DNA of 64,000 nt from NCBI GenBank assembly GCA_000146465.1, contig CP001948.1. One strand, given 5' to 3'. Position numbers and translations under genes: made by a program. Shown in pieces: positions 1,819 to 41,324 of this stretch. Numbering within the stretch: the stretch's first letter is position 1; the number at the start of each line of letters is the position of its first letter. The notes beneath the pieces are model-generated. The model ran no database searches and was not told the origin of the DNA. It saw only the letters and a program-made list of their open reading frames with translations.

Positions 1819-3351
1819 ATGAAGAGGTCGATTAAGGTTTGCCATTCCAAAACATATGGATTTCCATCAGGTGAGAACATATGCCATCAGGAACTTGCGG
1901 AGAGCTTCCAGATTCTTTCGGCAGTAAATCTTTTGGTGTTGCCTGAGTCGTTTGTAAGAATCGAGTTTTTTTCCACTCGTAGAAGCGTTTTCACTAATGA
2001 TTCCTTTAATGCAACAGACATCTACTCTGTATACAGGAACGGCGAGCTTTTTTTCAATTCCTCCCCGCTTCCATGGGAGTCGGATGCACAGATACCCTGG
2101 GCAGAATATAGAAAAAGGCTAGTCGACTATATTTCAAAGAGGCTAGCTCACGGGATAGAGAACATGGAGGGACTTAACGATCGTTATATATTCTATACAA
2201 AATATCGCCTTGCAAATTCCATCAATCCAAGACAGTGCCGAAAAGACCTCCAGAAGCTCTCCAAAGAGTTTAAGCTATTGGAGAGGATAGAGGTTTTACG
2301 GCTGTCTACACAAAAAGAAATCTCAGGTCCCCTTGCTGATGAAGTATATAACATATTTTTATCCTATAAATCAGATCCAGAGCTAGAAATCAGGTTTATT
2401 TTGGAAGTGATAGACATACTGCCGCTGTCTGTCATTGTAAGAATGGCTAGAAGTATTAGCAAGGCAAGAAGATACCAGGCTGTATTACTGTATTACGAGG
2501 TATACTTGAGATCTCTACAGAAGGAAAGATACAGAACAGCATTTCTGTTTGCCATCAGTGCATCAAGACTTCTTAAGCAGGGGGTGAACTTAAACTTTGA
2601 GGGGACGATCAAGTCAGATTCAATCCGCTGTATTAAGGAAAAAAACTGGCAGATGGTGTTGAAGAATGTGATTAAGGGAATAGAGGAGTTAGATTCACTC
2701 AGATACGGGGTAAATCCATATATATTACACGACATTGATAGATGTGAGTTTACTGTCGATTCTGTGGAACTTGACTGGTCCAACATTACCAAGTGCTCCG
2801 ACACAGTGCTCTTCAATGGAGAAAGCACAAGAACATACTTCACGGATCGGTTCAGAATCAGAATCTTATTTTCTAGAATATCTTGTGCCAATCTCCATGG
2901 GATTTCGGGAAGTATTGCGGGAGGACCGGATATATTTATACCAATATACCAGGTCTTAAATGAAAGTCCTGCAGTTGTCCAAGTATTCTTTGATCTAGCC
3001 AAAGTACTTCCTTCTGCGGAAGATAGAGCCAGTGAGCTTGAACTAAACCTTAAAAGATTAGTTTTCTCCGAAAACATAGTTGTACCTATCGACCTTGAGA
3101 TTACCTGGGTGAGAAGAAAGAGCACAGTCCACGTCAAGGATGCCAGTACTATCGATGACGAAGGGAAAATCATCGTTCTCCTTGTATTATCAAATCAGGA
3201 GGGATTTGAATCCAGAATTCTTGGGCCAGATGTTATAGAGAGAAATGGATGTGAGACAACTGTTTCTCTGCATGTGTCCAAGGGATTCAAAGTATGTTTA
3301 CGCCATGAGATCTCGGAAAGCATATTTGAGACATTCGAACTCACATACTAA
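1819..3351 (+). CDS. Hypothetical protein, 510 aa
   Basis: Long ORF that fills the gap between flanking genes. I recognise no motif in it. Confidence 0.4.
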   Translation: MKRSIKVCHSKTYGFPSGENICHQELAESFQILSAVNLLVLPESFVRIEFFSTRRSVFTNDSFNATDIYSVYRNGELFFNSSPLPWESDAQIPWAEYRKRLVDYISKRLAHGIENMEGLNDRYIFYTKYRLANSINPRQCRKDLQKLSKEFKLLERIEVLRLSTQKEISGPLADEVYNIFLSYKSDPELEIRFILEVIDILPLSVIVRMARSISKARRYQAVLLYYEVYLRSLQKERYRTAFLFAISASRLLKQGVNLNFEGTIKSDSIRCIKEKNWQMVLKNVIKGIEELDSLRYGVNPYILHDIDRCEFTVDSVELDWSNITKCSDTVLFNGESTRTYFTDRFRIRILFSRISCANLHGISGSIAGGPDIFIPIYQVLNESPAVVQVFFDLAKVLPSAEDRASELELNLKRLVFSENIVVPIDLEITWVRRKSTVHVKDASTIDDEGKIIVLLVLSNQEGFESRILGPDVIERNGCETTVSLHVSKGFKVCLRHEISESIFETFELTY

Positions 3352-3387: not shown

Positions 3388-4251
3388 TTACTTGCCTCCA
3401 TTGGCCCCGGAATCCCATGTGTATTGACCCTCTCCTAACTTCTTTTCCGCAATCTTGATATCTTCAACAAACTCCACTTGCTCTGATTTGGTAAAAGAGC
3501 ATCTTGCCTCGGGCGGATATTCCACCTCCTCTTTTGGAAACACAAAACTTTCCACAATGTCCTCAACGGTATTCTCCGAGACATCCATGTCTTCGTCTTC
3601 TATTGCTTCTTCACTAGAAGCTTTTTCTGTATAATCCTCCTCCCCAAAGAAGACCCTGTTCCGAGGCTTCCGGATAAACCTTTTCTTGAGCTTTCTCAGT
3701 ATGTTTCTGTTTATCTCTAACATGTCGTGGTTGTGCTTCTTGGAAGGTTCTTCATAGTCTTCATCGGACGAGGCAATAAACGACAGGGCATCGGAATCAC
3801 CTCCATCCTCTTCATAGGAGGATTCTCCATCCTCAGATGTTTTTGCTTCCAAGTCTATGAATCTTTTAAATCCTTTGGACTTCCCAGACTTGGACTTTGC
3901 TTCTGAACTTGAACCCAAACTCGATGAAGAAGAATGATGCAACGGTTGGGCCTCGGTTTCATCTTGGTCTTCCATTTGTTTACTGGAAGAAAAACACTCA
4001 TCATCGCTTGACATACAACAGACTCCATCCATAGAGGTATCATGACGGCTCTTAAGAAAAATTAAGTCAAAATCATCATCTTTCCTTCCAAGTATCTTAT
4101 TGGTTATTCTCTTCTGGACCTCTCTAACCGCAAGTTCCCTTAAGATCTGCTTGCGATGTTCCCCATAAAGTCCCATCGCATGAGATATTGTATAGACACA
4201 TGCCTTTCTGCTTGTCAAGGAGTTTCTTGGGAATTCTTCGGCTTCCTTCAT
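3388..4251 (-). CDS. Hypothetical acidic, Ser-rich nuclear-type protein
   Basis: 287-aa ORF with a structured N-terminus followed by a D/E/S-rich low-complexity region. Confidence 0.4.
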   Translation of the reverse strand: MKEAEEFPRNSLTSRKACVYTISHAMGLYGEHRKQILRELAVREVQKRITNKILGRKDDDFDLIFLKSRHDTSMDGVCCMSSDDECFSSSKQMEDQDETEAQPLHHSSSSSLGSSSEAKSKSGKSKGFKRFIDLEAKTSEDGESSYEEDGGDSDALSFIASSDEDYEEPSKKHNHDMLEINRNILRKLKKRFIRKPRNRVFFGEEDYTEKASSEEAIEDEDMDVSENTVEDIVESFVFPKEEVEYPPEARCSFTKSEQVEFVEDIKIAEKKLGEGQYTWDSGANGGK

Positions 4252-4296
4252 GTCTGGAAATAGGTTAGCGATAAAAACAAATAAAAGGGCTCCCTT

Positions 4297-5466
4297 ATGA
4301 TTGAAGAGCTGAAAGGGATAGTGAGAAACAAGGAGACAGTGCTTGAGGAAAAAGAAGCTGCAGTCCTTGAGATTTTTAGGATCCTGATTTCCAAGGGTGA
4401 CTACCAGGAGATCGGGGCCACTATCATTTCATTGAGAGAGACTTGGGAAGATATAACAACACCCAGAATCACAAAGATCATAAGAAACCTTTTTGAAATG
4501 ATCCCATACTCGTCTGACAACTTTGGAAATGTTCTTGAGCTTCTTACTGTTCTTGTGGAATGGGCAGACAAGGAAAATAAGAAGATGCTCCGCCTCGACT
4601 TAGAGTGCAAAAAGATATATGCTTTGCTGAAGACAGGAAGATATTCGGAGGCATTGGCACAGATAGGACCTGTAGCCCATGAGCTCAAGAAGTACGATGA
4701 CAAGATCAATCTCATAACCTTATATGTGTATGAAAGCAAGGCATTCTATGAGATAAAGAACATCTCGAAGTCAAAGTCGTCTCTGACATCTGCAAGGGTT
4801 CTTGCAGTTTCTGCGTACTGCCCGCCCCAGCTTCAGGCACAGATCGATCTTCTAAGTGGAATTTATATATGTGACGAAAGAAACTATGGAGTTGCGTCTT
4901 CTTACTTCATAGAAGCTCTCGAGGGCTTCACACTTGGAAAGATGGATCCTGAAGCCTGCATATCGCTGAGATATCTTATTTTGTCAAAGATCATGGCAAA
5001 TAAGAGAGAGGAAATCAATACGGTGATGAAGAATAAAAGCACTCTCAAACATCTTGGAGACGAGATAATCAGGGTCCTCCTCAAAGTCAGCAACAGTTTC
5101 GCAAACAGAGATCTGAAGTCATACACCAATGTTCTTCAGGAGTATTCCGAGCAGATACACAGCGATTCATTTATCTGCAGCCATCTACAATACTTGTATG
5201 ATCTTCTCCTTGATAAGAACATCATTAAGATAATTGAGCCTTACTCTGTTATCCGAATCAGCTTCATAGCCGATGTATTGGGCTTTGGAGTAGACGTCAT
5301 TGAAAAGAAGCTTAGAAAGATGATCTTGGACAGAGCTGTCAACGGCACCCTCGATCACATAGACGAATGCCTAATTCTGCAAGGAGAGAAAGCCGATGAA
5401 AGCTTTGCAGACGAATGCATGAAACAAGTCAAGGCATTGAATTGTATTGTCTCCCCTCGCTATTAA
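4297..5466 (+). CDS. PCI-domain protein, probably 26S proteasome lid subunit Rpn6 (PSMD11) or CSN-like
   Basis: Helical-repeat N-terminus and a C-terminal PCI/winged-helix-like region. The 389 aa length fits Rpn6. Confidence 0.5.
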   Translation: MIEELKGIVRNKETVLEEKEAAVLEIFRILISKGDYQEIGATIISLRETWEDITTPRITKIIRNLFEMIPYSSDNFGNVLELLTVLVEWADKENKKMLRLDLECKKIYALLKTGRYSEALAQIGPVAHELKKYDDKINLITLYVYESKAFYEIKNISKSKSSLTSARVLAVSAYCPPQLQAQIDLLSGIYICDERNYGVASSYFIEALEGFTLGKMDPEACISLRYLILSKIMANKREEINTVMKNKSTLKHLGDEIIRVLLKVSNSFANRDLKSYTNVLQEYSEQIHSDSFICSHLQYLYDLLLDKNIIKIIEPYSVIRISFIADVLGFGVDVIEKKLRKMILDRAVNGTLDHIDECLILQGEKADESFADECMKQVKALNCIVSPRY

Positions 5467-5504
5467 AGCCTTTCGCAGCCTATTTTGGTTCTTTCTTTAC
5501 CCAT

Positions 5505-5891
5505 ATGGACATGGCAAATGCTCCAGACAAGACCTCCGGGAAGGTCGGCCTACTTTTCAAGACCATGGGGAAAATGATTCCTGTCAATGCAGTGTATGGA
5601 GACACAGTATTAGAGACTGCACACAAGAATGGCGTGGATCTTGAAGGAGCCTGCGAGGGAAACTTGGCATGCTCAACATGCCACGTGATCCTAGAGGAGC
5701 CTCTATACAGAAGACTTGGAGAGCCTTCCGACAAGGAATACGACTTAATCGACCAAGCGTTTGGCATCACAAGTACCTCAAGACTGGGATGCCAATTGAA
5801 AATTGATAAGAGCTTTGAGAAGACAGTCCTTACAATTCCTAGAGCAACGAAGAACATGGCTGTGGATGGATTCAAGCCCAAGCCCCACTAG
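5505..5891 (+). CDS. YAH1: Adrenodoxin-type [2Fe-2S] ferredoxin (Yah1-like), part of the mitosomal Fe-S cluster machinery
   Basis: Cys pattern CEGNLACSTCHV...LGCQ (C-x5-C-x2-C...C) and the adrenodoxin core GACEG/CSTCH. The start is taken at the MDMANAP ATG because the track ORF begins inside the previous gene. Confidence 0.8.
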   Translation: MDMANAPDKTSGKVGLLFKTMGKMIPVNAVYGDTVLETAHKNGVDLEGACEGNLACSTCHVILEEPLYRRLGEPSDKEYDLIDQAFGITSTSRLGCQLKIDKSFEKTVLTIPRATKNMAVDGFKPKPH

Positions 5892-5924
5892 CTGGGAAGA
5901 AGAATATCCAAGAGTCAAAAAACT

Positions 5925-8900
5925 TTATTCCATTCCGTACACAGAATGTCTTACAATTGTAGAGTCTCCATTTCCGTTTCTACTGAGTCTATAGAAGTAT
6001 TCAGGCCCGTCTCTACTTAGCAGCTGGACAAAATCCTCGTCGTGTGTGATTACAATCAGCTGGAAGTTGGAATCCTTTTTGTGCTTCGAGATTATCTTGG
6101 AGAGAGTGAATGCAAGGCTTTCTATGTTGTCTCTGTCGAGATTGGTCGTTGGTTCATCAAGAGCCAATATATTACAGTTGGAAGCAAAGGAATCTGCAAG
6201 CGCCAGTCTTATGAGAATGCTAGCTATCATCTTTTGTCCGGCACTCGACCTTCCTCTCATGTCGAGCTCCACCCCTCCTTTGATAAATACAACCTTGTAG
6301 TTATATGTTCTTTGGCCCGAACTCTCTGTCTTGATCTCTATCCAGTCAACGTCATCTCCTCGGTAAGTATTCATCCACAGGTCCTTCAGCGTTGCATTGA
6401 CTTCTTCTAACTTCGAGGTATGGAAATCCACAATAGCCTTGTCCAATGCCTGGATGCACTTCTCGAGGTCCAGAGAAGATATCTCCAGAGCCTTAACTTC
6501 AATGAAGCATTTGTTATAGTCCTCTACAGTCTTTTCATGATCTTTCTGAAGCTCCTGCCTACAGGACTTTATCCCCAGAGCAATCTGCTTGCATTCCCCT
6601 AGTAATAATGACTTCTGTGCAATCAGCTTCATCTTCTTTTCTTCCAAAAGCTGTTTCTTCTCTCTAAGTCTGGTTAGATACTCAAAGTCAATTTCAGACA
6701 ACTCCTTCTCTATTTCTTCAATTATCCTTTGTCTTTCGTAATACTTCACACTCTCCTCTGCCAGGACACGCATTTCATGCATAGTACGAATCTTCTGTCC
6801 AGCCTCCAAAACCTCATTTTTCTTCTCAAGGAGCTCATTTCTCACAGCATCAAACTTCCCTTCATCCTTAGCCTCATCACAATACTCAATATGAAGAAGC
6901 TTCTTCACCTTACTGTTCAGCTCTTCTATCTCTTTTTCAAGCACTGCTATTTCCTTTTCCTTTTGGTAGAAAATCTCCATACTCATTTCCAACTCTACTC
7001 TCTTTCTCGAAAACTTCTCCAGAATCTTCTCAACCCTGCCTTTCTTTCGCAATACTTCCTCAGAGACTTCTGCAATCCTCGCTCTTATGCTACTCCTCTC
7101 AATCTGGCGAATGGCTTCTTTTGCATCCTCTCGAAAATTGATCTTTTCTCGGATCTCTTTCTCTGCCCTAACTACTTCCTGCTTCCGCTCAAGATACTCA
7201 ATCCTTTCTTTCTTTCTTTTCATCTCCCCTCTCTTCTCCTCATAGATCTTCTTTATTCCATCAATCATTGACTTCAGCTCCTGAACAGACTCTCCTTCCT
7301 TTTCATCCTTCAGCTTCCCCTCTATCGAAAATAGCTCGGAAACTAATGAAAGATAAAACTCTGTTTTCTTGATTCCCTCAGACTCGTCCAGGATGTCTAA
7401 CTCCATCTCCTCTAGAACTTCCTCATCTACTATGCCTTCGCTAGGCTCGTATTTCAGAATAAGCCCAACAATCTCTTCTCGTTTCCTGTTTCTATCCATC
7501 ACTCCTTCATTGATCCTCTCTATTTCCGTCTTTCCCCTACTTTGTCTCTTGGATGTATTTTCTTTCCCTTCTAAAGAGACTCTTTCAATTGCAAGCTCCA
7601 GTCTTCTTTTAAACCCTATCTCTTCCTCCATAGAAAAGGATCGGTGGCAAATAGGACATCCATGGCTTCTTCTTCCATCCTCCAGCATTTCTCTATAAAT
7701 CTTTTCTCTCCACAAACTCTCTGACTCACTTGTCATATCCCAAAGCTCAAAGGCCTCCTTCTTTCCATAGAATCCTTCAAAGTTCAGTAGGTCAACTCCA
7801 AACATTGCTGAATCCGCTCCAAAGAATGTTCGATTTCTTTCTACAATTTCCCTTGCCTTTTCCACTTCACACTCATTTTTGTAGTAGAATCCTGAAACCT
7901 CTAACTCTAGCACTGCTTGATCTCCAGCTTTGAGTTGCATGGCTCTAAGCTCCTCACACTTCCGACCTATTTCCCTTTTGATTCTTTCATTCTCCTTCTC
8001 TCTTTGCATCATTTCAGCCTTCTTAAGATTTATTTCTGTCTCAATCTTCTTTGCCTTCCTCTCCTTCTTTCTAAGTTCTATTCTTTGTCTCTCAAGTTTC
8101 TGGTGAAGCTCAGAGACATTAACCTCGCTCAGAATCCCCTCAATCTCTTTCTTTCTGTTTCTTATCTGGCTCACCATGAAGTTTTTCTCTGCAATGCTAT
8201 ATGCATCGTTCAACCTCCTTTGATAGTCCTCTAACCTTTCTTCCAAGGCCTCCATCTCTCTATCTCCACTTATCTCCATCTTAAGCCTCTCCATCTCCTC
8301 CAAATATGAGACAGAAACATCTATACTTCCATTGTCCTCAAGACCCTCATATTCGTCCACTATTCTTCTCTTCTCAAAGAGGATTTTCGTCCGATTCCCC
8401 TCTTCCTCCTTCAGCTTCCGAAGCTCCTCCTCAAGCTCATTTATACGTTTCTTTTTGTCTCCAATGTCTTCCTCCACTTTCCTGAAAACCTCAAGAGCCG
8501 TTTCCCTGAAGTCCTTCTCAACCCTCAGCTCCAATGAAAGGTTCTTAAAAGCCTCTGTCTTCTGCCGTTTTGCTTCATCTAACAGAGAGGACTTAACAGA
8601 TATCTCCGAAAACACTCCGTCGAGTTCCCCCTTACTCCGGAGATAGCTGCTTCTTTTCTCGCTCAGACTCCTGAATCTTGCTTCCTTTTCCTCTGCATCC
8701 ATCTTCATCCTCTCGTACCTTTCCTCTACCCTCTTCAGGAACTCTCTGCTCAAAATTTCTCTTGCTTCTTCCAACTCCAACCTCTTTTCCTTCAGCCCAT
8801 CAATAAAGCTCTTTAGTTCCTTATGTTCGTTTCTTAGCAAATATGCCCTTTTCTCCCTTTCCCCATTCTTCTCAAGCTCCATATCTATCTCTTCAACAAT

Positions 8901-13103: not shown

Positions 13104-13826
13104 TTATCCCTCTTCCCTATCTTCCATCTTTTTTTTCTGGTTTCTTGGCTCCTGAAGCCTGTAGAGTGTGGAAGCTTCGCTGTAGTATGCATTGCCATCT
13201 CTTATGCAGAGAACCAGGAGATTGTCTATCTTTTGTGGTGAGCATGTGAAGACTCGTCCGTCGGACATACAGGCTTTCTTGAACAGCTGGGAAGACCCTT
13301 CTTCTAGAATGGTAAAAGAATCTTTTTGGAAGTCTATCCCGTCCGACTGGATAATGACACTCTCATCTTCCGTCGACGGAAAGAGACTGTAAACCTCTTC
13401 GGCCTTGATGTTCTCGTCTGTAGGGTGAACTATTGTGTTTACATCCTCGAAGGACTCTTGGATATATTTTTGATAGTCGAAGATCTTACTCATGCTTTTC
13501 TTTATCCTTTCTCTCTCCAGAGCCTCGCCTCTTCTTTCCAGCCCACTGGAAGCTCCAAGTCGATGCCCAGGCTTTCCCGTACTTGAGGCCTCCCTTTCGA
13601 TATAGTCCATGACCATTTCTACGAAGTCTATGTCCAAGGCTTCAAGAAGATCTGTATGTAGCCGCCTTGGCACAATCTTCTCAAGGGACCCGTCAAATGA
13701 GGTGAAGTCTCTTTTTATCTGAGGCTCAATGTAGCACATCCCAGGTGTTGGTGCGGGAGGTGCATTTGCCCAGCATATGCTCTCTTCAAGCTCACGGAAG
13801 GCTTTTTCTGGATCCATCTTGGGCAT
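13104..13826 (-). CDS. Hypothetical protein, 240 aa
   Basis: ORF with no recognised motif. Its stop is immediately adjacent to the SUMO ORF. Confidence 0.4.
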   Translation of the reverse strand: MPKMDPEKAFRELEESICWANAPPAPTPGMCYIEPQIKRDFTSFDGSLEKIVPRRLHTDLLEALDIDFVEMVMDYIEREASSTGKPGHRLGASSGLERRGEALERERIKKSMSKIFDYQKYIQESFEDVNTIVHPTDENIKAEEVYSLFPSTEDESVIIQSDGIDFQKDSFTILEEGSSQLFKKACMSDGRVFTCSPQKIDNLLVLCIRDGNAYYSEASTLYRLQEPRNQKKKMEDREEG

Positions 13827-14074
13827 TGGGTTGAGAATTTTTCTAGGGTTGATTAAGGCCTTGGCAGCTTTGCCGGCGAAGAAATAAACTTTAAAATCAA
13901 GTGGTCGGGTGCTGGAGAGTAGTCTGAATCCTGTTACAGCACAAACAGCTGCCTTTCGAGTTGGACTATTGGAGTCTAAGACATCGTCCAGTTTCCAAAC
14001 TCCTTCTAGTCATTCCGTTCCGGTCATAGAAGAAGTGAACTTTTCTGTTATGAACGATTTCTGGCATTAACCAG

Positions 14075-17000
14075 ATGCCCTTTCGGCAATGTGTCTCATC
14101 TCAGACCTTCCCAAGGGCAGAGCCCCTAATCGAAAGCTTCCAGCCGCCGACAGGGGTAGGAGAAGAAAAATTTATGAATGGCAGAAAGGCCCTTTTGATG
14201 AATCTAAGGCTAGAATCGATAACAATCCACAACTTCAAAAGCTACAAAGGGACCCATGTGATCCAAGGCCTGGATCCAAGGTTCACGGCGGTAGTTGGGG
14301 CAAATGGCTCGGGGAAGAGCAACATAATAGACAGCATTCTTTTTGTGCTTGGGTTCCGAGCCCGAAGGATGCGTCATTCGTCGATGGCAGGCTTGATCTA
14401 TAGTGGAGACGGAAACCAAGACATGTGTTATGTAGAGCTAGGATTCAACAAGTTCCAAATAAGGAGAGAGGTTTCCTTGGCAGGAAGGACTAGGTATTTT
14501 GTGGATGGAGAAGAGGTACCTTGTACTATGGTGGAGTCTTTGCTCAAGAGCGAGGGTGTTGATATGGAGCACAATAGGTTTTTGATACTACAAGGAGAGA
14601 TCGAGAATATTGCTATGATCAAGCCCATGGATGGTGGTTTGCTGGAATATCTTGAGGATGTAATTGGGACTGGAGAATACAAGGCAGAGATTGAAAAGGA
14701 AGAAAGTGAGCTCCGAAGGGTCTCTGAGGAATGTGAAAGCAAGTCGGCAGCACTGAAGTTCTATGAGAAGGAATACAAACATATTGAAAGAAAGCAGGAG
14801 GAGTGTCTGAGGACAGCCAAAAGAAGAGCTGAATGCCTGTGTCTGGATCGGGATTTACATCTTCTCTTTTCAGAAAGAGGGAAAAAGAAGCTAGAAGGGC
14901 TTCTGTTGGAAAAAAAGAAGATTGAAGAAGATCTTCAGGTCCTTGAAAAGAAGAATAAAGAGAATGGAGGCAAGCTTGAGGTACTGGAAGGGAAAGGAGC
15001 AAATGCAAGAGTTTCGGCTCGAGAAGCCGAGGAGAGGTTTTTGAAGGCGAGAAAAGAATACCAGAGAGCAGAAAGACGAAATAAAATGATGGAAGAGGAC
15101 CTGGAGAGGGAGTCAAAGCGTATTGAGGAGTTATCTCGTGAGATTTCTGAAATCAGGTGTCTGGAAGATAAAAGGCAAAAGGAGGGGCTTAAATGGACAG
15201 AGGAAATTAATCGAAATGTGGAAGAGATCTCTAGATGTAGTGAATTAAGCGAGAAGCTCCGAAGTGAAATTGGAGAAGGACAGAGAAGGATTGAGAAGGA
15301 GGCCAGAAAGAGTATTGAAGAGATTTACAGAGAAGAAGAGCGGATGATGAAGCTTCTCAAGAGGAAAGGAGAGATTGGAGAGAAACAACGAGAATCGGAA
15401 TCTCGATTAGGAATTCTGATGTCGAGGAAGGAGGAGATTTTGAGAAGGGTTGGGGACATCGATGGCAGGCTATCGAAAATGGATGAAGGAAAAATAGAAA
15501 TGGGAAGGTCTGAGGAGGAAATTAGCAGGGAGATTGAAGAGATTGAGAGGGATCTGGCGAAGACAAGAAAGGAAATGAGTAGAAGAATGCAAAGGGCTGA
15601 AGAGCACAGAGAAAACGAGGAGACAAGTTGGAAGGAGAGAGAGATTCTAAGAAGTATTGAGCATGTGAAAGGAGTCTATGGAAGGCTAAGTGATCTTGGG
15701 TCTGTGGAGTCCCAATATGATAGGGCATTCAGGATTGCAGGAAAGGGATTGAACAGCATAGTTGTTGATACAACATGCACTGCAGAAGAGTGTATTTCCA
15801 TAATAAAAAGTCTGGGACTTGGGAGAGCTACATTTATAATATTGGACAGGATTTCCTCGGAGCCTAGCCTTCCTAAGGAGTCTGTGCCTTATCTGTACAA
15901 TCTTGTCAAGTGCCCAAAGGAGTTCCGAAAGTGCTTTTATTTTGCTCTGAAAGACACACTTGTATGCGAAGGATTGGAAGTGGCCGAGAGGCTTGCATTT
16001 GGAAAGACAAGAAAAAGGGTTGTGACGATTGATGGAAAGCTTATTGAGAAGAGTGGAGTCATGAGTGGAGGAAAAGGGAACGGAAGGATAAAAAGCATTG
16101 AAGAGCTTGAGAAGGCGTGCTTGAAGATGATGGAGCTGAAGAAGAAGAAAGTTTCGGAGATGGATATGGTTAGAGACTTGAAGGAAAGAGGAGCCCTATG
16201 GAAGACCCGAGAAAGACTTGCTTCGGACTTAGAGGAAGTGTGCCGGGAGATTGGGAGAGTAGAGAAGAGGATCAATCGAAAAGAGATAGAGGATATTGAA
16301 GTAGAGATTGAGAAGATTAAGAAAAAAGTGTCTTCTCTCCGAGAGGGAATTGAGAGTCTTACCGACATGGAGACCCGTAGGAAGAAAGAAAACCTTCGAA
16401 ATCTTAACGAGAGGATTGAGGTGTTTGAAAAGAGAAACCTTGAACTGAGACTGCATCTTGAAAGCAGTGGATCAGGGGAGCTTCGAGAAAAAGAGCTGGA
16501 GGTTGAAAGAAGAAAAAAAGACTTTGAAAGAATCAGCATCGAAGATATTTCAGGAATGAAGAGCAAGATGATTGAATGTGAAAGGGAATATAAAGAATGT
16601 GCAGAAAGGTTGAGGGGGATATTGAAGGAGATTGCAAACGTGAAAGCCTCTCTTGGAAACGACTACCATATGGAAATTGACCTGAAGAACAGGTTGGATG
16701 ATGCTTGCGATAAGATTGAGGAGTGGACACAGAGGATTAAGGAGAGCGAGACAAAAATAGCTTCTCTTGAGGAAGAATCCAAGAAGTATATGAGGATATG
16801 CAGGCTTGAAATCCATAGTACAGTCAAGGTTGAGGAAATGAACGAAGAGGAAATTGATCGGACAATAGGAAGGATCGGTGGCACGGTGGCAAGACTTAAA
16901 GGCGAAGAGATTGGAGAGATTGATCTAGATGTGTTTGAAGATTGTGAGAGGGCAAGGGTGGAATACGAGAAGGCAAAGGGGGAACATGGATGGTTTGAAT

Positions 17001-38141: not shown

Positions 38142-38351
38142 GGGGTAGGCCTTTGATATGTATACTTACAAAGAAGATCTTTTGGCCCATGGCAGAGCTG
38201 TCGGAAGAAAAAAGAAGGATGTATTTGGAGCAAATAGAGGAGCTTGAAAAGACACTTGAGAAGGAGAAAGATAGTCTTAGAAAGACTATAGAATCTCAAG
38301 ACTCCAAACAATAAAAGATTTATTTTCTATATCAAGAGATCTTTGGCAACT

Positions 38352-38630: not shown

Positions 38631-39218
38631 ATGGACATTCAGAAAATAGTTGATGCCATTAGATCTAACGACATAGATGCAAACAGAGCTGCTATCGAAA
38701 GCATCTATGCCAACTGCAGCCAGCTAGACGACAAGGACATTATAGAAATAACTCCGTCTGTGATCTACTACCTGTGGAAGCTTCCGAAGTTCACGGCTCA
38801 GAAGCAGTTTGTTCTGGAACTTTTGTCCCATGCCGACCAAAGGTTGCGCTACAGCCTGTTCATGTATCTCATCGATCACTGGAGTAGCATCCAGCTGGTA
38901 AGAATGGACAAATTCTACTATCTTGTCAAGAGGATTCTGGAATATTATGTACTGGATGTGGAAACAGTCTCTTCCTTGTTCAATATATCCACGAGCATGG
39001 ATCTTAGAACATTTATAATTCGATGTGTTGTGGACAGACTTAAAGAAACCACCGAGGACATGGAGCATTTCTTGGCTGGGTTTGCTTCCACGTGCCCTCC
39101 GGCATTGCTGCTTCCTCTCGAATCCCTAAGGCTCCGGAAGGAGGTTGCCCTGGAATATGCAGGGAATAAGGACATCGGAAAGAAGAACAGAGCTGCATTA
39201 TACTCCATGATCAAATAA
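38631..39218 (+). CDS. Hypothetical helical protein, 195 aa
   Basis: ORF with no recognised motif. Confidence 0.35.
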   Translation: MDIQKIVDAIRSNDIDANRAAIESIYANCSQLDDKDIIEITPSVIYYLWKLPKFTAQKQFVLELLSHADQRLRYSLFMYLIDHWSSIQLVRMDKFYYLVKRILEYYVLDVETVSSLFNISTSMDLRTFIIRCVVDRLKETTEDMEHFLAGFASTCPPALLLPLESLRLRKEVALEYAGNKDIGKKNRAALYSMIK

Positions 39219-39241
39219 AAGATATTTCCACTAACTCAGCT

Positions 39242-39883
39242 CTAGCTCTCATGCTTCACAAAGCTGAACTTGCTTTTGCACTTCTTGCAGACAGGAACAA
39301 ACCTGCAGAACACAGAGAGACATATTGGACATACAAGCCCCAGCAGAACTTGCTTGTTATGGCAATAGCAGGTTGCAGGGAATCCCAGAGGCTTTGAATC
39401 TCCTTTTGTTCCAAGGAGAGAGAGTAGAAATCTCAAACATCCGTCTTCAGATGTTGAATAACCGCCGCCCGTTGCAGCACAACATTGGAGAATCGTCTTG
39501 TTTTCAAACAGCGAGAATGCACTTATTCTTACTCCAAACCTCTGTGCAGCAAACATGCATTTCAGATATCTCAGATACTCGTCGTTCCGCTCCTTCTCAA
39601 GTGTAAATATTACGATTTGGGATTCCCCGAGTCTGTGGAGACACAATGCATATCCGAGATCCCCCACGTCATAGCTGGACTGGTGTTGAGTTATCCTGTA
39701 TATTTCCTCGATGCTACTTTCCAAGGAGTCGAAGAGGATCTTCTTCCCACTTACGACGACAATTCGATTGTTTCGGCTTGACTTGTGATATGCATTCAAA
39801 AAGACAACAACGTCATTGAAGAGGTCTCTCCCCGTCATCTCCCAATTCTCTTTCTTCAGGTCGATTAGAAGGAAAAGAATCAT
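39242..39883 (-). CDS. TFB4: TFIIH subunit Tfb4/p34
   Basis: vWA-like N-terminus with LFNDVVVFLNAYH ~ yeast Tfb4 VLEALIVFLNAHL, and a C-terminal zinc finger CYCHNKQVLLGLVCPICLSVFC...CKKC. The track's N-terminal extension is translation through the tRNA, so the start is moved to an internal ATG. Confidence 0.6.
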   Translation of the reverse strand: MILFLLIDLKKENWEMTGRDLFNDVVVFLNAYHKSSRNNRIVVVSGKKILFDSLESSIEEIYRITQHQSSYDVGDLGYALCLHRLGESQIVIFTLEKERNDEYLRYLKCMFAAQRFGVRISAFSLFENKTILQCCAATGGGYSTSEDGCLRFLLSLLGTKGDSKPLGFPATCYCHNKQVLLGLVCPICLSVFCRFVPVCKKCKSKFSFVKHES

Positions 39884-39928
39884 GAGGGATTGGCAAGGAC
39901 AGATCTTGTGTTCTGTGGAGCAAAAAGA

Positions 39929-40009
39929 TGTCAGAAACGGGATTCGAACCCGTGCCTCAATGAGAATACGACCTGAACGTATCGCCTTAGACCACTCGGC
40001 CATCCTGAC
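39929..40009 (-). tRNA. tRNA-Leu, anticodon CAG, class II with a long variable arm
   Basis: Reverse complement reads GTCAGGA-T-GGCCGAGTGGTctAAGGCG-ATACG-TTCAGGT-CGTAT-variable-ACGGG-TTCGAAT-CCCGT-TTCTGAC-A. It has a 7-bp acceptor stem with one G-U pair, a D-loop of the Leu/Ser type, an anticodon loop TTCAGGT giving CAG, a T-loop GTTCGAATC, and no encoded CCA. Coordinates +/-2 nt. Confidence 0.8.
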
Positions 40010-40013
40010 TTAT

Positions 40014-41324
40014 ATGTCCCCCAGGGGAGGGTATCGCCAATTCCTTGCCCCATGCTCCAGACAAACATATATTCGCCAAGGGGATGTCCTCTATTATCTA
40101 ATGGACGGGTGCAGTCATCCCGTAAGACTGGGCACATTGTGCGGGGTATGTGGAATCGAAATCCCTGAAGATTCACACCTCTTCTGTGCACTCTATAACA
40201 CAGACAATGTTAAGATAACGCACAAAGAGGCTGTCTCAATATATAAAGAAAAAATGAAAACTTTAGAGACACAGATGAAGCTGATTCTGGTTCTTGATCT
40301 TGACCAGACAATTCTTCATACAACATACGGGGAATCCAGGATCCATGGAACTGTGAGATTTATAATGGATGGGAGCAAGTACTGTGTGAAACTAAGACCA
40401 AACCTTGATCATATGCTTCGGAAAATTTCCAGGCTGTATGAGATTCATGTGTATACCATGGGAACAAGAGCATATGCAGAGAGAATAGTTGGGATTGTTG
40501 ATCCTTCTGGAAAATACTTTCAGGACAGAATCATTACAAGGGACGAGAATGAAGGGGTTTTGGTGAAGAGGCTGAGCAGGCTCTTTCCACATAACCACAA
40601 AAACATAGTAATCCTTGATGACAGGCCTGATGTATGGGACTACAGTGAAAATCTGCTTCTTGTTCGGCCGTTTTGGTATTTCAACCGTACGGACATCAAT
40701 GATCCATTGAGGCTGAAGAGAAAGATAGAGGAAGAGGGAAGAACATCTAGGGACTTGGAAGGGTTTGTGGACAAGAAAAAAAGAGTTGAGGAAATTGAGG
40801 ATCCGGAGATTGTCTCGAAGCTGGATGATATAGTGCTTGAATGCTCTTCTGGATCCAAGGAGCCAAGGAAAGATATCGAAAGCACGGAAGAAAAAGAAGT
40901 AAGCAGATGCTTGGAGGATTGCGAGCTGTTAAGAGTGACAAAGGTGTTGAGGAGGATTCACAAGAAGTACTTTTCAAGCAGCCACAGAAACGTAAAGAAG
41001 ATTCTGAGGAACATCCGAAAAAAGATTTTCGGTGGAGATCGGTTTCTTGTTCCACCTGCCCCAAATAGGATGTGGCTTGTAAAAACAATCGAAATGAACG
41101 GAGGGACAGTAAGTTCTCTGGAGAACGAGGTTGACTTTATAATTTCTTCTAGCAAGGAGGAGGTCAAGGCCCTGGCACAGAAGCTTGAGTGTCTTGTTGT
41201 ATCTCCAAAGTGGATAGCCGATTGTGTGTATTCCCTGAGGCGAGTAAGGCACGGAAGGTACATTGTGTGCGACTATAGGCCCAAGGATGAATACGAAGAA
41301 GAGCTTGAAAGGCTCTTTTCGTGA
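40014..41324 (+). CDS. FCP1: RNA polymerase II CTD phosphatase FCP1
   Basis: N-terminal CSHPVRLGTLCGVCG motif, as in human CTDP1 (CSHPTVMKGLCAECG). FCP homology domain LVLDLDQTILHTT (DxDxT), and a C-terminal BRCT-like region. Start taken at the first ATG after the tRNA. Confidence 0.75.
   Translation: MSPRGGYRQFLAPCSRQTYIRQGDVLYYLMDGCSHPVRLGTLCGVCGIEIPEDSHLFCALYNTDNVKITHKEAVSIYKEKMKTLETQMKLILVLDLDQTILHTTYGESRIHGTVRFIMDGSKYCVKLRPNLDHMLRKISRLYEIHVYTMGTRAYAERIVGIVDPSGKYFQDRIITRDENEGVLVKRLSRLFPHNHKNIVILDDRPDVWDYSENLLLVRPFWYFNRTDINDPLRLKRKIEEEGRTSRDLEGFVDKKKRVEEIEDPEIVSKLDDIVLECSSGSKEPRKDIESTEEKEVSRCLEDCELLRVTKVLRRIHKKYFSSSHRNVKKILRNIRKKIFGGDRFLVPPAPNRMWLVKTIEMNGGTVSSLENEVDFIISSSKEEVKALAQKLECLVVSPKWIADCVYSLRRVRHGRYIVCDYRPKDEYEEELERLFS

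Follow-up and report, generated by a model that had tools for sequence, protein, structure and literature searches.

The tRNA-Leu(CAG) gene and its neighbors

A single tRNA gene is returned by ARAGORN in the window, the whole 64-kb stretch of DNA that was analyzed, and it lies between the genes for Tfb4 and FCP1. It is a class II tRNA-Leu(CAG) of 81 nt, encoded on the minus strand at 39929..40009. ARAGORN and Rfam agree on this gene, as the original prediction had it, and the ARAGORN run that the prediction proposed as a check accepted the structure and returned the Leu(CAG) identity. The match to Rfam RF00005 scores 55.2 bits (E 2.9e-11, gathering score 29) and covers the full model from 1 to 71. 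The CAG anticodon (39973-39975, minus strand; given by ARAGORN as cag at position 35) is carried in a 7-nt loop, UUCAGGU, in which position 33 is U and position 37 a purine. The gene has a variable arm of 11 nt whose 3-bp CUC/GAG stem recurs in every relative, and it ends in the discriminator base A (A73); A73 is an established mark of Leu identity, and together with the long variable arm it points to Leu and not Ser or Tyr.

Both internal Pol III promoter elements that had been predicted are present. The A box TGGCCGAGTGG (39992-40002, minus strand) fits TRGYNNANNNG and the B box GGTTCGAATCC (39940-39950, minus strand), the TFIIIC site, fits GWTCRANNC, the consensus sequences reported in all Encephalitozoon tRNA genes (PMC5499648). 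A T5 run, TTTTT, stands at 39922..39926 on the same strand, 2 nt past the 3′ end of the tRNA in the sequence ACA followed by TCTTTTTGC, and a T-run of four or five is found directly 3′ of the tRNA in all relatives. By analogy with established Pol III biology, in which such runs act as terminators, the T5 run is likely to be the terminator of this gene. With A and B boxes at consensus inside the transcribed region and a T-run close downstream, the gene has the make-up of a type-2 Pol III gene.

On the minus strand, downstream of the tRNA, lies the coding sequence for the TFIIH subunit Tfb4 (39242..39883, 213 aa, starting MILFLLIDL). It matches Pfam PF03850 at 72.9 bits (E 4e-20, cut-off 27) over the C-terminal half of the profile, and the exact 213-aa product is present in NCBI assemblies. 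On the plus strand, an FCP1-type Pol II CTD phosphatase of 407 aa, starting MDGCSHPVRLGTLCGVCG, is encoded at 40101..41324, an assignment based on Pfam, sequence identity and a conserved start. At 100% identity it matches the “Fcp1-like phosphatase” recorded for Encephalitozoon intestinalis ATCC 50506, and the window is E. intestinalis DNA. The protein contains an NIF domain (E 2.7e-29) and a C-terminal BRCT_2 domain (E 1e-07), displays the catalytic DLDQT (DxDxT motif) in its translation, and shares 43% identity over 221 aa with Mucor Fcp1. The divergent pair of Tfb4 and FCP1 that was originally described is thereby borne out by the domain matches on both sides.

Mechanical open reading frames extend both protein genes across the tRNA, as had also been pointed out. 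On the minus strand the frame runs over 39242..40003 and begins MAEWSKAIRSGRILIEARVRIPFL, while on the plus strand it runs over 39816..41324 from a TTG start. These extensions are six-frame artefacts. The automated gene call for a relative from a sequencing-run assembly, L009, repeats the over-extension error. In compact genomes, calling by first ATG or longest ORF carries protein genes through non-coding RNA genes, and at this locus both neighbors are affected.

Synteny and selection on the tRNA

The order and orientation of Tfb4, tRNA-Leu(CAG) and FCP1 are kept in E. cuniculi (L003, L004), E. hellem (L005, L006) and Ordospora colligata (L007, L008), and likewise in L010 and L013 as well as L009, all three being relatives taken from sequencing-run assemblies. 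At greater distance the arrangement loosens: in L011, whose FCP1 is 47% identical, a gene for a HAD hydrolase lies between Tfb4 and the tRNA, which there too diverges from FCP1, at a distance of 95 nt, and in L012 (FCP1 38% identical) FCP1 and Tfb4 are tandem neighbors without tRNA-Leu. Since the spacers in Ordospora are wider (147 nt and 113 nt) and those in Encephalitozoon are shorter, the layout predates the tightest packing.

Across the relatives' alignment all 23 of the 23 cloverleaf pairs are standard in each of the six distinct sequences, and three pairs show compensatory double changes: U2-A to A-U, a U-A to C-G change in the anticodon stem, and an A-U to G-C change in the T stem. In slid controls of the same alignment only 29-48% of cells are paired, compared with 100% of stem cells, and in 500 shuffles the covariation score of the real alignment is never attained. 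Mean column identity is 96% in the tRNA alignment against 57% in the whole intergenic alignment, and the tRNA has hardly changed among relatives in which FCP1 retains only 47-71% identity. CTG is also the commonest Leu codon of the five neighboring genes, with 59 of 193. Judged by this comparison of sequences, the preserved pairing with its compensatory changes, the excess of identity over the surrounding gap and the codon usage, tRNA-Leu(CAG) is functional and under purifying selection. That it might instead be a decaying pseudogene or a functionless tRNA-derived repeat has a negligible probability. The one result in favor of such decay is an unremarkable free-energy z-score of -1.08 in single-sequence folding. 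A value that modest is usual for tRNAs, for which folding of single sequences is uninformative. Decay is difficult to reconcile with a full-length Rfam match far above the gathering score, perfect A and B boxes, the retention of every pair in a nearly invariant sequence, and the fixed syntenic position of what is the sole tRNA of the window.

Start codons and the size of the gap

The Tfb4 start codon at 39883 stands, because the N-terminus MILF(L/F)LIDL is common to seven species and in-frame stops lie upstream of it in several of them. Between this codon and the tRNA 3′ end there are exactly 45 nt, as had been estimated.

The FCP1 side requires a different conclusion, as the original prediction placed the tRNA 5′ end about 5 nt from the FCP1 ATG. 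The codon in question, an in-frame ATG at 40014..40016 on the plus strand, is separated by 4 nt from the 5′ end of the tRNA, and were FCP1 to begin there the gap would shrink to about 130 nt with the tRNA touching the start codon. In its favor, the reading frame of this ATG runs into FCP1 and meets no stop before 40101, and an in-frame ATG adjoins the tRNA in two of eight loci, those of E. intestinalis and L009 (where it is 3 nt from the tRNA). The codon is nevertheless not conserved: E. cuniculi has no in-frame ATG in the equivalent stretch, where the codon is frameshifted or missing, and in-frame stops fall between the tRNA and the conserved FCP1 ATG in E. hellem, O. colligata, L010 and L011. 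The 436-aa version of the protein is absent from the protein collection, where the 407-aa product is on record. Homology to the Fcp1 of fungi starts only from the second Met, with similarity to Mucor Fcp1 beginning at residue 32 of the 436-aa version, and the 29-aa extension finds no match in Mucor Fcp1. A start at 40014 would also turn an invariant ATAT element, described below, into coding sequence. The base at position +4 is T at ATG 40014, whereas ATG 40101 is followed by G and A at +4 and +5, in agreement with the published A/G bias (PMC2803860). Initiation of FCP1 at 40014 is, on this balance, very improbable, and the 29-codon extension was rejected on the stops and frameshifts in relatives, the missing 436-aa product and the lack of homology; a minor extended isoform in E. 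intestinalis is conceivable, though unlikely. The start at 40101 is kept in all orthologues, and from this comparison of sequences it is the true FCP1 start, 91 nt from the tRNA 5′ end. Comparison with relatives is what settles the start codons here.

With FCP1 starting at 40101, 217 nt and not ~130 nt separate the two start codons, and the tRNA occupies 37% of it, so that the earlier description of a gap almost filled by the tRNA no longer applies. The remainder is divided between a 45-nt spacer (39884..39928, minus strand) in which the tRNA 3′ end faces the Tfb4 ATG in tandem, and a 91-nt non-coding spacer (40010..40100) that would hold both the upstream region of the tRNA, presumed to be its TFIIIB side, and the FCP1 core promoter. 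The first of these measures 47 nt in E. cuniculi, 38 nt in E. hellem, 37 nt in L010 and 147 nt in O. colligata, and the second ranges from 78 to 116 nt over eight loci.

Candidate promoter motifs

Each spacer contains conserved motifs close to its own protein gene. As the organism is a eukaryote, a scan for bacterial-type promoters and terminators was set aside. On the Tfb4 side a CCC motif (CCCTCATG) lies at 39886..39888 on the minus strand, 2 nt before the ATG, and a C-run directly precedes the Tfb4 ATG in E. cuniculi (CCCCCATG), E. hellem (CCCTCATG), L010 (CCCATG) and O. colligata (CCCCAATG). In E. cuniculi a CCC-like signal, which the Tfb4 motif matches, is known immediately 5′ of start codons, usually after an A/T-rich stretch (PMC2803860). 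At Tfb4 the customary -30 position lacks an A/T hexamer. The Pol III T-run was considered as an A/T-rich element doubling for Tfb4, an idea of low probability given the poor to marginal fit: the run occupies -43..-39 in E. intestinalis and -36..-32 in E. hellem, compared with a peak of A/T hexamers at -30..-26 from start codons across the window.

On the FCP1 side the CCC-like motif is CCTC, degenerate by one base and located 10-13 nt before the ATG. Further upstream is a TATA-like element, ACATATATT, at 40065..40073 on the plus strand, 28-36 nt before the FCP1 ATG, whose ATAT core is invariant in all seven aligned loci. ATATAT stands 32-35 nt before the FCP1 ATG in six of these loci and 24-26 nt before it in L010, whereas between it and the tRNA there are 53 to 85 nt, depending on the locus. 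The element was also considered as the TATA box for TFIIIB at the tRNA, and this assignment was rejected on the same two distances. Because its spacing to the ATG is nearly fixed, its spacing to the tRNA is variable, and A/T hexamers peak at a similar place across the window, ATATAT is best viewed as a putative TATA-like element of FCP1. Nearer to the tRNA, a TATCGC block (GCGATA on the tRNA strand) at 40032..40037, about 23-28 nt 5′ of the gene, is a candidate Pol III upstream element. It aligns in E. intestinalis, E. cuniculi and E. hellem, is partial in L010 and is absent in L009 and Ordospora, and its sequence may mark the Pol III upstream region.

Compaction

The original prediction saw in this arrangement an extreme case of genome compaction, and here the published genomes give a different scale. 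In E. intestinalis, with 46 tRNAs by tRNAscan-SE, the mean intergenic length is 115 bp (PMC4355639), and both spacers of the tRNA, at 45 and 91 nt, fall below this mean; in E. cuniculi head-to-head genes are found just 35 bp apart (PMC2803860). Divergent gaps in the window range from -11 to 420 nt, which serves as rough context, being taken from crude first-ATG ORF calls that underestimate the gaps. A second non-coding RNA gene of the window, that for RNase P RNA (13908..14148), is likewise wedged between divergent ORFs, where a first-ATG ORF overlaps it. Given the published mean, the 35-bp pairs, the other gaps in the window and the placement of RNase P RNA, “extreme” is not the right word: the locus is a case of ordinary compaction in a published genome, and the feature is already known.

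Three probable transcription units in 217 nt

An ordinary, selected and syntenic Pol III tRNA-Leu(CAG) gene in a 217-nt gap, with Tfb4 and FCP1 each seeming to have a small core promoter of its own, is very probably the correct description of this locus. The Tfb4 promoter would be pressed on its start codon, with the CCC motif 2 nt before the ATG, and the FCP1 promoter would use the conserved ATATAT about 33 nt before its ATG. Separate conserved motifs beside each ATG suggest, at the level of sequence, two small promoters and not one that is shared. The tRNA is tandem with Tfb4, upstream on the same strand, and divergent from FCP1 only, so we prefer to think in terms of two separate short spacers rather than of a shared bidirectional promoter. 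Since 5′ RACE in E. cuniculi gave 5′ UTRs under 7 nt (PMC2803860), we infer that both mRNAs most likely begin between the tRNA and their own ATG, and not within or past the tRNA. Longer, overlapping and run-through transcripts have also been reported in these genomes, and these count against such starts (PMC2803860). The degenerate CCC-like motif of FCP1 and the missing A/T hexamer of Tfb4 also speak against the description. No short transcript-like assemblies carrying Tfb4, the tRNA and FCP1 were found, all contigs on record being genomic and at least 10 kb long. Three small transcription units would then lie side by side, with the initiation footprints of Pol II and Pol III nearly abutting.

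Two readings would give the tRNA a greater part in the control of its neighbors. By analogy with yeast, the tRNA with bound TFIIIC and TFIIIB could be a roadblock or insulator against Pol II run-through and antisense transcription, or could damp the Tfb4 and FCP1 promoters. In Saccharomyces cerevisiae, Pol III complexes once assembled obstruct Pol II transcription between genes, limit bidirectional initiation at divergent gene pairs and can silence nearby Pol II promoters (PMC4228148). E. cuniculi has documented run-through transcription (PMC2803860), and the tRNA-FCP1 spacing stays at 78-116 nt over the eight loci. A conserved position is, however, expected in any case from genomes that are almost fully collinear within Encephalitozoon (PMC5499648, PMC4355639), and the distant L012 has adjacent FCP1 and Tfb4 genes without tRNA-Leu, so that we regard this role as unlikely, if worth keeping in mind. 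More doubtful still is a fuller coupling, in which the Tfb4 Pol II pre-initiation complex would sit over the terminator and 3′ end of the tRNA, initiation by Pol III and Pol II would be mutually exclusive or coupled, and the tRNA would be a selected control part of these two genes of the Pol II machinery as well as an insulator between them. In this reading the TATA-like element of FCP1 and the site presumed for TFIIIB lie only ~30-40 nt apart, and the T-run would possibly be reused as the A/T-rich upstream element of Tfb4.

The locus could be used as a natural case, on a small scale, for studying the coexistence of the Pol III and Pol II machineries within ~200 nt. There is no sign of unusual biology at the locus, and its value lies mainly in annotation practice.

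Comparison with known systems

The nearest analogy in function is with the effects of tRNA genes in yeast. These effects, namely tgm silencing, insulation and the Pol II roadblock (Wang et al. 2014, PMC4228148), resemble this locus in that a tRNA gene stands less than ~100 nt from Pol II starts and between divergent genes. The likeness is one of layout, and with 45 and 91 nt to the two ATGs the promoter complexes here would have to nearly abut. Insulation and tgm silencing by tRNA genes are known only from yeast (PMC4228148), and no microsporidian data on them were found in the literature.

Parallels are also offered by the compact head-to-head promoters of microsporidia (Peyretaillade et al. 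2009, PMC2803860), with which the locus shares the CCC of Tfb4, the A/T-rich element ~30 nt before the FCP1 ATG and the very short 5′ UTRs that these would imply. It differs from them in having a Pol III gene between the divergent starts, which makes one shared element improbable, and in the degenerate CCTC of FCP1. A further comparison is with the tRNA genes annotated in Encephalitozoon, of which each genome has 46 (Corradi et al. 2010, PMC4355639; Belkorchia et al. 2017, PMC5499648), which have the same type-2 Pol III form with A and B boxes and short spacers. There is no material difference from these genes, the same orthologous position being occupied in E. cuniculi, E. hellem and Ordospora, and tRNA-Leu(CAG) appears to be one of the 46 already annotated.

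Over-called reading frames beside RNA genes

In L009, the locus of a close relative that keeps the Tfb4/tRNA-Leu/FCP1 order, the automated Tfb4 call (2139..2828) is a protein of 229 amino acids that carries 16 extra codons ahead of the conserved MILFFLIDL start, which brings it as close as 6 nt to the tRNA. The extension is an over-calling artefact, of the same kind as the original prediction had described for the protein reading frames extended through the tRNA in the window. The nuclear RNase P RNA gene (13908..14148, minus strand; Rfam RF00009, 99.8 bits) is flanked by a minus-strand ORF with its ATG at 13826 and by a plus-strand ORF whose first ATG, at 14075, lies within the RNA gene itself. 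It is the second non-coding RNA gene of the window to occupy a divergent gap with an over-called adjacent ORF.

Genes adjoining Tfb4

Tfb4 (39242..39883, minus strand) converges on a Nop52-like gene (38631..39218, plus strand), and the two stop codons are separated by just 23 nt (39219..39241), so that the 3′ UTRs of these genes must overlap unless they are extremely short. A small plus-strand ORF (38153..38314), located between the Cullin gene and the Pam16-like gene, has a 41-amino acid product beginning MAELSEEKRRMYLEQ; 41-amino acid genes are called at the matching position in Encephalitozoon cuniculi (L004, 1075..1200) and, likewise matched by place, in locus L002.

Gene order in more distant relatives

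In L011, a more distant relative drawn from a JGI metagenome, tRNA-Leu and FCP1 are divergent and 95 nt apart, while a HAD-family hydrolase gene, in the stretch 2077..2905, separates Tfb4 from the tRNA, so the divergent tRNA–FCP1 pair is older, or more stable, than the adjacency of the tRNA to Tfb4. FCP1 is followed there by a second HAD gene. In the still more distant microsporidian L012, where FCP1 is 38% identical, tRNA-Leu is absent from the FCP1/Tfb4/Cullin neighbourhood (4001..8558); these three genes remain adjacent, all on the same strand, with tRNA-Arg(CCG) at 6053..6126, between Tfb4 and Cullin, in place of tRNA-Leu.
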